Sequence record: PV340542
Length of the DNA stretch: 40,128 nucleotides
Strand: one strand, 5' to 3'
Source of the DNA: Escherichia phage mEp506
Shown here: one piece after another, positions 32,471 to 33,601 of the stretch
Layout: each line of letters opens with the position of its first letter
Numbering within the stretch: the stretch's first letter is position 1
Notes under the pieces: model-generated
What the model was told of the DNA's origin: nothing
Database searches by the model: none
The model's input: the letters and a program-made list of their open reading frames with translations, nothing else
Made by a program: the position numbers and the translations under genes

Positions 32471-32493
32471 ACCACCTACGGGTGGTTTTTTTA
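32471..32493 (+). terminator. rho-independent terminator
   Basis: ACCACC-tacg-GGTGGT followed by TTTTTTT. Confidence 0.5.
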
Positions 32494-32503
32494 TGGGGGC
32501 AGC

Positions 32504-33112
32504 ATGCAAGAGGTAATGACAAGAATTGAGCTAAGTGGCGTGCTAGCTAAGACATATGGAAGGGTTCATCACCGTCTGGTTCGCACTACTGCTGAAGCCA
32601 TTAATGCACTCGCGAAAACCATCAATGGATTCGAGAAATTCTTAAACACAAGCAAAGCCCGAGGGCTGACGTATGCCGTTTATAGAGATAAAAAGAATAT
32701 TGGCGTTGATGATCTCGGCTTTCCCGTCACCGGCGAAGTGATCCGGATTGTCCCTGTAGTAATAGGGAGTAAAAAGGCTGGTCTTTTGCAGACGATCTTG
32801 GGGGCCGTGCTTATTACTGCTGCTGTGTTGACTGGCCCCGGCGGTATTGGCGCTGCTTTCGCTGCTGGTGGATTGACGGGGTTTGCTGCTGCCACTGGTG
32901 CCTCGTTGGTCCTCGGTGGGGTTATTCAGCTGCTTTCACCGCAGCCATCAGGCATAGCCAGTAAACAAAGCGCAGATAACCGTGCATCGTATGCGTTTGG
33001 CGGGGTAACCAACACTGCAGCGCAAGGCTACCCGGTGCCTCTGCTTTATGGTAAGCGTCGAATCGGCGGAGCGATTATTTCTGCCGGAATTTATGTCGAA
33101 GATCAGCAGTAA
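32504..33112 (+). CDS. I: tail tip assembly protein I
   Basis: 202 aa with a Gly/Ala-rich hydrophobic segment (GLLQTILGAVLITAAVLTGPGGIGAAFAAGG) as in lambda I. Confidence 0.8.
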   Translation: MQEVMTRIELSGVLAKTYGRVHHRLVRTTAEAINALAKTINGFEKFLNTSKARGLTYAVYRDKKNIGVDDLGFPVTGEVIRIVPVVIGSKKAGLLQTILGAVLITAAVLTGPGGIGAAFAAGGLTGFAAATGASLVLGGVIQLLSPQPSGIASKQSADNRASYAFGGVTNTAAQGYPVPLLYGKRRIGGAIISAGIYVEDQQ

Positions 33113-33132
33113 GCTAAGTTAAGGAGATGTGT

Positions 33133-33282
33133 ATGTCTTTTGAGTCACGAGTAGAAAAAACTGAAAATGAAACATCTGAAGTTAATGAAACGGTCCCGCA
33201 TGAGACCGTAGAGTACGATGCTTCAATGACATTAGGCGTCAATAAGCTTCATATTTTTGACGATGTCTTGAATTTGTGGTGA
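33133..33282 (+). CDS. small acidic hypothetical protein (49 aa)
   Basis: ORF MSFESRVEKTENETSEVNETVPHETVEYDASMTLGVNKLHIFDDVLNLW with AAGGAG RBS; 3' end overlaps the convergent minus-strand ORF; speculative. Confidence 0.3.
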   Translation: MSFESRVEKTENETSEVNETVPHETVEYDASMTLGVNKLHIFDDVLNLW

Positions 33283-33447
33283 GTTTGTCTTTGATAGGAT
33301 TTCAATAACTTGTTGCCTTGTATCTACTGGCAATGCTGCTGTTAATACCATTGTAACTTGTCTTAGAGCCACAATTTCTAAAGCGATTTCTCTAGGAATA
33401 TTTTCGTCAAGAGTAAATCTAAAATCCACGAACTTTTCTTCGATCAT
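33232..33447 (-). CDS. hypothetical protein (71 aa) in the I-J intergenic insertion
   Basis: Minus-strand ORF MIEEKFVDFRFTLDENIPREIALEIVALRQVTMVLTAALPV... with GGAG RBS; AT-rich region absent from lambda. Confidence 0.4.
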   Translation of the reverse strand: MIEEKFVDFRFTLDENIPREIALEIVALRQVTMVLTAALPVDTRQQVIEILSKTNSPQIQDIVKNMKLIDA

Positions 33448-33579
33448 CTTATTACTCCGTTTTAACCGGGTACTTCAGCCATCCCTCGGTCAGTTAACGC
33501 CAGCGGCCTACCACTGGCGGGCTGAGCTTACACATTAACCAGGGATTCCTGTTACCAACAGCCTGATATTTAAACAGTA

Positions 33580-33601
33580 GCCACCTTCGGGTGGTTTTTT
33601 T
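33580..33601 (+). terminator. rho-independent terminator immediately upstream of J (near-copy of the one at 32471)
   Basis: GCCACC-ttcg-GGTGG followed by TTTTTTT. Confidence 0.5.

Follow-up and report, generated by a model that had tools for sequence, protein, structure and literature searches.

The tail-gene locus

The DNA analysed is the 40,128-nt sequence of Escherichia phage mEp506 (record PV340542), which is called the window throughout, and the subject is a pair of near-identical hairpin sequences in its tail operon, each placed directly in front of the start codon of a tail gene. To judge from its sequence, the window is a lambdoid prophage of the HK97/HK022 type. Over the shared parts, the region 31400–34200 matches HK97 at 98.4% and HK022 at 96.7% identity, and over its full length it is 97.9% identical to an E. 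coli prophage.

The tail operon has the order L, K, gene 20, I. Tail gene K (31473–32182, + strand) is followed by a short spacer (32183–32229, +) and then by gene 20 (32230–32454, +), which encodes a small membrane protein of 74 residues belonging to the YebO family. Next come tail assembly gene I (32504–33112, +; 202 residues, matching Pfam Lambda_tail_I and gene I of HK97) and, after an intergenic insert of 500 bp, the central tail fibre gene J (33613–37080, +), whose frame is lost near its 3′ end. Within the insert there is a small putative forward open reading frame (ORF) of 51 residues (33127–33282, +), with a strong ribosome-binding site (RBS), AGGAG, 6 nt before its ATG; a reverse ORF of 71 residues (33232–33447, −), related to HK022 srb/gp23 and listed as a hypothetical protein in RefSeq; and about 130 nt of non-coding DNA (33448–33578) between the reverse ORF and the second hairpin.

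The two repeats, each of 35 nt, lie at 32472–32506 (copy 1, +) and 33581–33615 (copy 2, +). A preliminary description made from the letters alone had reported two near-identical terminator-plus-start sequences, about 1.1 kb apart, which flank gene I and the I–J insertion and directly precede start codons. This is borne out throughout: a direct read of the sequence finds both strings where they were placed, a repeat search aligns the copies with 31 of 35 positions identical (89%), and their starts are 1109 bp apart. Copy 1 lies upstream of gene I and runs into its ATG (32504), while copy 2 lies at the 3′ side of the 500-bp insert and runs into the ATG of J (33613). The longest exact run common to both is 19 nt. 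A search of the window with the 26-nt consensus CCACCTWCGGGTGGTTTTTTTATGGG, allowing up to three mismatches, finds these two sites only; 100 dinucleotide shuffles give an expectation of 0.00.

Both copies are built like an intrinsic terminator fused to a translation start region, so that the label "terminator plus start" is apt. In each there is a G+C-rich stem closed by a C(UNCG)G tetraloop, then a tract of seven U, a G-rich patch resembling a Shine–Dalgarno (SD) sequence, 4–6 nt, and ATG. Hairpin 1 with its U-tract (AAACCACC-UACG-GGUGGUUU; 32469–32492, +) has a stem of 8 bp and a predicted folding energy of −12.2 kcal/mol; hairpin 2 (AGCCACC-UUCG-GGUGGUU; 33579–33601, +) has a stem of 7 bp and a predicted energy of −10.3 kcal/mol. 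Both loops are of 4 nt and of the UNCG class. The U-tract is followed by AUGGGGG in copy 1 (with the SD-like GGGGG at 32496–32500) and by AUGGGCG in copy 2, and in both cases the spacing from U-tract to ATG is 11 nt. A terminator scan called both copies on the + strand only, the same palindromes lacking a T run on the − strand. In both, the stem is thus followed by a U-tract of at least 5 on the transcribed strand, and the position is also that of an intrinsic terminator: copy 1 lies 15 nt after the stop codon of gene 20, and copy 2 stands at the + strand end of the I–J insert, or directly after I in relatives that have no insert.

Accessory DNA upstream of each hairpin

According to PMC3594210, which cites Juhala et al. 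2000 (J Mol Biol 299:27), morons are extra, compositionally distinct pieces of DNA, each with a promoter and a terminator of its own, that are active while the prophage is repressed. The two inserts in the window match this published definition in being extra, low-GC DNA between tail genes: their GC contents are 41.7% and 40.8%, against 51–55% in L, K, I and J, and gene 20 itself has 40%, against the same 51–55% in its flanks. The preliminary description proposed that the duplicated junctions mark module boundaries, and in this sense they do, each copy standing where a stretch of inserted, low-GC accessory DNA, a moron, has its 3′ edge.

This arrangement is already known. The HK97 GenBank record carries the label "terminator, putative" at both hairpin positions, and the records of HK75, HK446, mEp234 and N15 annotate these terminators too (hairpin 1 as a putative terminator in HK75 and HK446, hairpin 2 as a terminator in HK75 and N15). 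Products of HK97 genes 22 and 23 are labelled "moron" and "reverse moron" respectively, and gp20, gp22 and srb of HK022 are labelled as moron products. HK97 and HK022 (NC_002167, NC_002166) have the same locus at 97–98% identity, with gene 20 between K and I, terminators annotated at both positions and, between I and J, a forward moron paired with a "reverse moron"; the inserts are low in GC, and the concept of a promoter–gene–terminator unit expressed from the prophage matches as well (PMC3594210). What differs is the content of the I–J insert, where the ORFs of the window are not those of HK97 (gp22/gp23) or HK022 (gp22/srb), and only a promoter and leader region of about 120 nt and the hairpin are shared. 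Since the structure is already annotated and is explained by the moron concept, the repeat pair in itself is an ordinary finding. It is textbook moron architecture, and a good illustration of the way in which a temperate phage prevents prophage-expressed accessory genes from driving lethal expression of its tail genes.

Gene 20 is a forward moron between K and I. Its product matches Pfam YebO (E=1.8e-12) and phrog_5031 (E=7e-41), is named "YebO family protein" in RefSeq, and is a "moron gene product" in HK022. HK97 gp15, of the YebO family like the gene 20 product, is a superinfection-exclusion moron expressed from the prophage (PMC3594210). In lambda, K and I overlap, whereas here gene 20 stands between them. 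None of 77 HK97-type loci has an empty K–I gap, the range being 321–1472 bp. The stem before I is the same GCCACCTTCGGGTGGC as that before J in many loci and quite different in others, giving a diverse set of pre-I hairpins, each followed by a T-run, AT(T)GGAG, GGTG or GGGG, 4–8 nt, and ATG. In the relatives sampled, the type of hairpin tracks both the moron gene upstream and the allele of I downstream, and copy 1 is co-inherited with the gene-20 moron and with gene I. As a side observation, gene 20 has TAG in HK97 (at about 1418–1420 of the HK97 stretch, L001) where the window (about 32316–32318), HK75 and HK022 have CAG, which indicates that the gene is intact in the window and interrupted in HK97.

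A resident hairpin between I and J

The I–J junction was surveyed in an unbiased sample of 80 viral contigs with homologues of I at 71–100% amino-acid identity, and 78 loci were scored for the I–J gap. The gap is 46–56 bp in 68 of the 78, as against 500 bp in the window, which identifies the latter as extra DNA; in 10 loci the inserted DNA amounts to 318–879 bp. The great majority of the short gaps contain GCCACCTTCGGGTGGC-T6-7-ATGGGCGCAATATG or a close variant, and in HK75 an empty site with its hairpin is directly visible. Lambda has a hairpin at the same position with a different sequence. The hairpin is kept where nothing has been inserted, which makes copy 2 the resident hairpin of the I–J junction, lying outside the insert. 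The moron concept differs here, because the empty sites indicate that the I–J terminator was already in place and was not brought in by the moron.

The reverse accessory cassette that fills the junction in the window is inserted between the stop codon of I and hairpin 2, just 5′ of copy 2. The possibility that hairpin 2 is a component of this cassette was considered and rejected, since other copies of the same cassette adjoin different hairpins or none, with a residual spacer of 0–15 nt between. The terminator scan of the window gave no − strand terminator after the reverse ORF.

A third cassette at the T–H junction

A third terminator-plus-start cassette, overlooked in the preliminary description, lies at 27063–27098 (+), 5′ of the tape-measure gene H. 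Its sequence is GCCCGCGGCTGCGGGC-TTTTTTATGGGTGAAATATG, or GCCCGCGGCUGCGGGC-U6-AUGGGUGAAAUAUG. The stem differs from those of copies 1 and 2, and the U-tract and start region are shared (the same UUUUUUAUGGGUGAAAUAUG, here after GCCCGCGGCUGCGGGC); the U-tract-plus-start pattern TTTTTTATGGGNGNANNATG has three matches in the window, with none expected.

The T–H junction has a hairpin and no insert in the window and in 72 of 79 relatives. In HK97, moron 15 is found just 5′ of a related hairpin, which has the same stem core and start region and a different loop. In the seven filled T–H junctions (inserts of 452–486 bp; loci L327–L406 surveyed), the resident hairpin has been swapped for another, and in four of the seven the similarity to empty sites resumes exactly at the U-tract, TTTTTTTATGGGTGAAATATG, the hairpin in these four being followed by the same UUUUUUUAUGGGUGAAAUAUG. 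The resident terminators at I–J and T–H suggest that pre-existing terminator-plus-start hairpins decide where morons can settle.

Proposed function of the hairpins

Both copies are probably Rho-independent terminators, each set directly against the region where translation of the following essential tail gene is initiated; they would insulate that gene from moron transcripts and be read through under the control of Q. By analogy with lambda, whose biology is well established in these two respects, the hairpins in a lysogen would stop transcripts begun in the accessory DNA (from the gene-20 moron, and any + strand transcription that crosses the I–J insert), and I and J would thereby stay silent. 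During lytic growth, Q-modified RNA polymerase would read through the hairpins, and the U-tract with its G-rich patch (GGGGG, GGGCG or GGGUGA) would then provide I, J and H with their ribosome-binding region. The observations behind this proposal are the anatomy, orientation, context and conservation of the hairpins and the comparison of filled with empty sites, from which we infer termination, read-through by Q and the role as an RBS. In support are the terminator signature on the + strand only, the identity of the locus to that of HK97 and HK022, the low-GC morons, the resident nature of copy 2, the same logic at T–H, the T-run and start region kept after quite different pre-I hairpins, and the presence in the window of a gene for the Q antiterminator (14361–14984; Pfam Antiterm, E=1e-57).

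Several points weigh on the other side. The hairpins carry only "putative" terminator labels in the records, and their short folds have modest z-scores (−2.5 and −1.1). The spacer between K and gene 20 has, as read from the sequence, a candidate weak sigma-70 promoter (TTAACA-15 nt-TATCGT) and an RBS (AAGGAG), and the promoter scan of the window, which required a spacer of 16–18 nt, called no canonical promoter for gene 20, so that the transcript which copy 1 would terminate in a lysogen is a presumed one. The sequence of the stem is more conserved across diverged phages than a generic terminator requires. Finally, copy 2 is conserved at insert-free I–J junctions, and its primary role may be something other than insulation from a moron, such as stabilisation of mRNA 3′ ends, adjustment of the I:J ratio, or a part in the translation signal of J.

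A different explanation is that the hairpins are mainly RNA elements of the late polycistronic mRNA, acting as protective 3′ ends after cleavage or as part of the ribosome-loading sites of I and J, and so setting the stoichiometry of tail-tip proteins, with termination secondary. Not only copy 2 but also the pre-H hairpin is kept where there is no moron, similar hairpins are found 3′ of the major tail gene and of other late genes in the window, and lambda keeps its own, differently sequenced hairpin at I–J. The string ATGGG(Y)G(M)AATATG after the hairpin is moreover conserved before different genes and behind different stems. A hairpin that served stability would have no need, however, of a long perfect U-tract right after the stem, which is a terminator signature, nor would it need to be oriented as a terminator on the + strand only. 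We consider it somewhat unlikely that this is the main role. It is compatible with termination, since both functions can coexist, and because copy 2 and the pre-H hairpin occur without morons, they may also act on the stability and stoichiometry of late mRNA.

Spread and origin of the cassette

The preliminary description suggested a search for the junction motif in other phage tail operons. A scan of viral contigs for CCACCTNCGGGTGG-N6-9-ATGGG returned at least 120 stretches, and the motif is found at junctions before J, L, I, H and other genes. Among the matches listed, the downstream ORF is J in at least 73, L in at least 21, I in at least 9 and a protein of about 150 residues in at least 9, the rest being singletons that resemble capsid, tape-measure and endolysin genes. 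What comes after the U-tract, ATGGG(Y)G(M)AATATG, is found again in front of different genes and following different stems.

The identity of the copies at 31 of 35 positions points to common descent, through copying of one type of hairpin-plus-start cassette that recurs before H, L, I and J in this group of phages; it does not reflect any ongoing function of the pair as a pair. Convergence on the general layout of strong terminator, SD and ATG is also evident, from the unrelated stems found before I. It could be proposed that convergence accounts for the whole likeness, the two copies being independent terminators in a host which favours C(UNCG)G tetraloops on short G+C stems with a long U-tract, and in which a start codon placed after a U-tract needs a G-rich SD. 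In relatives, at least six unrelated stems serve this purpose before I, with a T-run and AT(T)GG after each of them, and the third cassette joins a different stem to the same U-tract and start string. UUCG and UACG both belong to the UNCG tetraloops, and Tuerk et al. reportedly found in 1988 that CUUCGG hairpins are frequent in T4 intercistronic regions. Convergence alone would nevertheless have to produce 19 consecutive identical bases, and an overall match that includes 14 nt past the U-tract for which a terminator has no use. An identical 27-nt sequence, GCCACCTTCGGGTGGCTTTTTTTATGG, is common to pre-I and pre-J cassettes in many relatives, and in phages that differ far more in the flanking genes, one and the same stem precedes L, I and J. 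Pure convergence is unlikely; the 19-nt exact run and the shared 27-mer argue that one cassette type was copied.

Are the hairpins used in recombination?

It was also suggested in the preliminary description that the repeats are boundaries used in recombinational exchange. The half of this statement that concerns module edges stands, as described above; for the half that concerns crossovers the analysis found no sign, there being no breakpoints at copy 1, and at I–J the change points fall outside the hairpin. The analyses of the end points of high-scoring segment pairs (HSPs) and of change points on which this is based are crude, and treat the sequences as independent in spite of their shared ancestry. 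With HSPs of at least 97% identity, no ends are found at copy 1, and the ends cluster at the edge between K and the moron, inside I and at the end of I–J. At looser thresholds the I–J region is enriched, with peaks that flank the hairpin. In 63 distinct empty I–J junctions the change points lie at −230 to −40 and at +80 to +200, which correspond to the 3′ half of I and the first 80–200 nt of J. Neither analysis shows an excess of joints at the hairpins.

The idea that conserved boundary or linker sequences serve as sites of exchange between phage modules reportedly goes back to Susskind and Botstein in 1978, and to Clark et al. in 2001. Applied here, the shared hairpin, U-tract and AUGGG would form a portable patch of homology, by which phage or host recombinases could swap modules and gain or lose morons. 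The wide occurrence of the motif (with J, L and I, at least 10 other gene families lie downstream among the matches listed) fits this idea, as does its position exactly at the junctions that bear inserts, namely T–H, K–I, I–J and M–L. There is also a conserved island of about 140 nt at I–J between diverged flanks, which takes in the 3′-terminal ~85 nt of I and, beyond them, the spacer, hairpin and J start region (−85 to +53 from the I stop; loci L129–L208). The replaced hairpins at the seven filled T–H junctions, with similarity resuming at the U-tract in four, are the best support for the recombination reading, and this support is circumstantial. In the literature, lambdoid mosaicism is discussed in terms of boundary-sequence and illegitimate-recombination models (PMC3233612), and brief stretches of identity are enough for Red-type and Rad52-like recombinases to join phage DNAs that have diverged (PMC2327257, PMC3945230).

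The observations at the two copies themselves fit less well. Copy 1 has no breakpoints, and hairpin type, moron and I allele are inherited together; the change points around copy 2 lie in the neighbouring genes. The reverse cassette ends 0–15 nt from hairpins of several unrelated sequences, which indicates that it is not targeted to the motif. Selection for intact genes would alone be enough to place joints in the only 20–50 nt of non-coding DNA available. The longest exact match is just 19 nt, and recombination between copies 1 and 2 would delete the essential gene I. With the boundary model the locus shares a short conserved non-coding island between diverged modules at I–J, and it differs in that the change points lie outside the island and copy 1 has no mosaic joint, while function explains the conservation equally well. 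The island itself, as a matter of its conservation pattern, fits a recombination patch or purifying selection equally well. A general role of the hairpins as recombination linkers is thus unlikely; such use is possible, unsupported for copy 1 and unproven for copy 2.

The PeSL (promoter-early stem-loop) elements of T4-type phages (Arbiol et al. 2010, PMC2839356; Comeau et al. 2014, PMC4122927), which offer a precedent for recombination, are likewise short conserved regulatory cassettes with a terminator stem-loop, repeated between genes, and flanking accessory ORFs in plastic regions. They consist, however, of a strong promoter with a stem-loop and occur many times per genome, and their recombination has been shown experimentally (mini-circles), whereas the cassettes described here combine a terminator with an RBS and occur in 2–3 copies per genome. 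The promoter scan found no promoter-like site in or adjoining either copy, and what follows the U-tract is an SD sequence and a start codon.

A reverse cassette with a structured leader

The DNA between the reverse ORF and hairpin 2 belongs to a wider family. Comparison of 33475–33606 with phage non-coding DNA gives similarities of 75–94% at three positions, always upstream of a reverse-oriented ORF: at I–J in HK97 and HK022, at M–L in the Salmonella phages ES18, Oslo and SPN3UB, and after Rz in mEp213 and mEp043. A pattern scan for the cassette found at least 120 stretches, with at least 99 distinct copies. Its right end is ...CAGTA(G), after which there is a spacer of 0–15 nt and then unrelated hairpins, or none. 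The alignments bring out a common layout: a conserved block stands upstream, then comes the TAnnnT box, which is invariant, and then a leader of about 75 nt, apparently at a fixed distance from at least 23 unrelated cargo ORFs.

In the window, the promoter-like region and structured 5′ leader of the reverse ORF occupy 33464–33579 (−), found as a single copy by profile search (nhmmer, E=1.6e-23). Other copies are at 2761–2879 of the HK97 stretch (L001), 2567–2686 of L002, 2492–2607 of L006 and 2464–2582 of L007. The −10-like TAATGT corresponds to + strand positions 33532–33537. The TAnnnT box is invariant on the − strand in 40 of 40 diverse aligned copies, with a weak −35. It is followed after 6–8 nt by a segment P_A, UCAGCC (33520–33525), which pairs with an invariant GGCUGA (33475–33480) and is 99.6% paired over the 40 copies. 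P_A encloses a hairpin P_B (33498–33519), in which four pairs covary (UG 17, UA 14 and CG 5; AU 23 and CG 14; GC 27 and AU 12; UA 28 and CG 10) and which is 97% paired in the same copies. Beyond these come GAGGG...CCUCU, the SD and the start codon, with an SD-like/anti-SD-like hairpin at about 33462–33490. P_A is predicted to start at, or within 1–3 nt of, the 5′ end of the transcript. A promoter, a transcription start site and a role of the leader as a 5′ stabiliser are what we infer from this arrangement.

The strand of the RNA can be judged from the covariation. One P_B pair is commonest as C.A on the + strand, which is G.U on the − strand, and this indicates that the RNA is the 5′ leader of the reverse ORF. 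A + strand small RNA ending in hairpin 2 was rejected on the evidence of this pair, with its series C-G, U.G and U-A, and of RNAalifold, which favours the − strand for the conserved leader region. Two further candidates were not adopted. A LexA box in the conserved upstream block was rejected, as the spacing is CTG-N9-CAG and not N10, and a helix C (CCAGGG...CCCTGG), in which only 69% of cells pair and which is located upstream of the TAnnnT box, was given no assignment as RNA. Rfam 15 at its gathering threshold gives no match to the leader, the only matches in the window being the cIII thermoregulator and two transfer RNAs (tRNAs); at E≤10, matches within 33100–33650 are at chance level only.

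The ORFs behind the leader form at least 23 clusters that are unrelated by BLAST, with lengths of 42–268 residues. Among the cargo are DUF1883, aspartyl-protease-like and DUF6602/PD-DExK (NucC-like) proteins, and most are without a match. The 71-residue reverse ORF shares phrog_6806 with HK022 srb; PADLOC and Pfam found no function for it or for most of the cargo proteins. In the unbiased sample, the profile search finds the leader in 7 of the 10 I–J inserts and in none of the K–I slots. The element is rare, occurring in 13 of 5426 complete E. coli genomes. A literature search for "reverse moron" returned nothing.

The closest functional analogue of the I–J insert is the "noncontiguous operon" taiEcA/atiEcA of phi80 (PMC11364771), in which a gene expressed from the prophage lies opposite to the Q-driven late operon and is overlapped by a small forward ORF; He et al. 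(2024) proposed that late transcription shuts this gene down. A search of phi80 tai for the conserved leader found it to be absent, and a 210-residue cargo cluster, considered as a homologue of phi80 Tai, was rejected as it has no similarity to Tai. In the window, the 51-residue forward ORF lies directly 3′ of I, and 51 nt of it are shared with the 3′ end of the reverse ORF, an arrangement similar to that of phi80 ati/tai. It has no Pfam or PHROG match and was not called by PGAP in an identical prophage. The copies found of this putative ORF (L005, L236 and the window) are identical.

Taken with the resident hairpins before H, L and J, the cassette leads us to a tentative hypothesis, for which the odds are perhaps slightly less than even: in the late operons of enterobacterial siphophages, the terminator-plus-start hairpins make these junctions a safe landing pad for DNA that bears a promoter, copy 2 marking one such pad, and the dominant occupant at I–J and M–L is a modular expression cassette that runs counter to the late operon and seems not to have been described before. 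Its leader would be a portable module for mRNA stabilisation and translation control of accessory or defence genes expressed from the prophage. If confirmed, the family would provide a handle for finding such genes, as well as a new cis-regulatory RNA.

Other features of the window

Gene K is split into two ORFs at about 31772 by a 1-bp deletion in a run of five G, and is otherwise the same as HK97 K over 711 bp. In J, loss of one base from a run of six G, at about 37033, puts the gene out of frame some 40 codons ahead of the stop in HK022. The two G-run deletions suggest either that homopolymers were misread in sequencing or that the prophage has been inactivated. A lambda cIII thermoregulator RNA element is found at 3979–4037 (−), and the two tRNA genes lie at 15259–15411 (+), between Q and the lysis genes. 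The order of features, and the HK022-like sequence of the cor/attP side that stands at the right end, are consistent with an integrated prophage.

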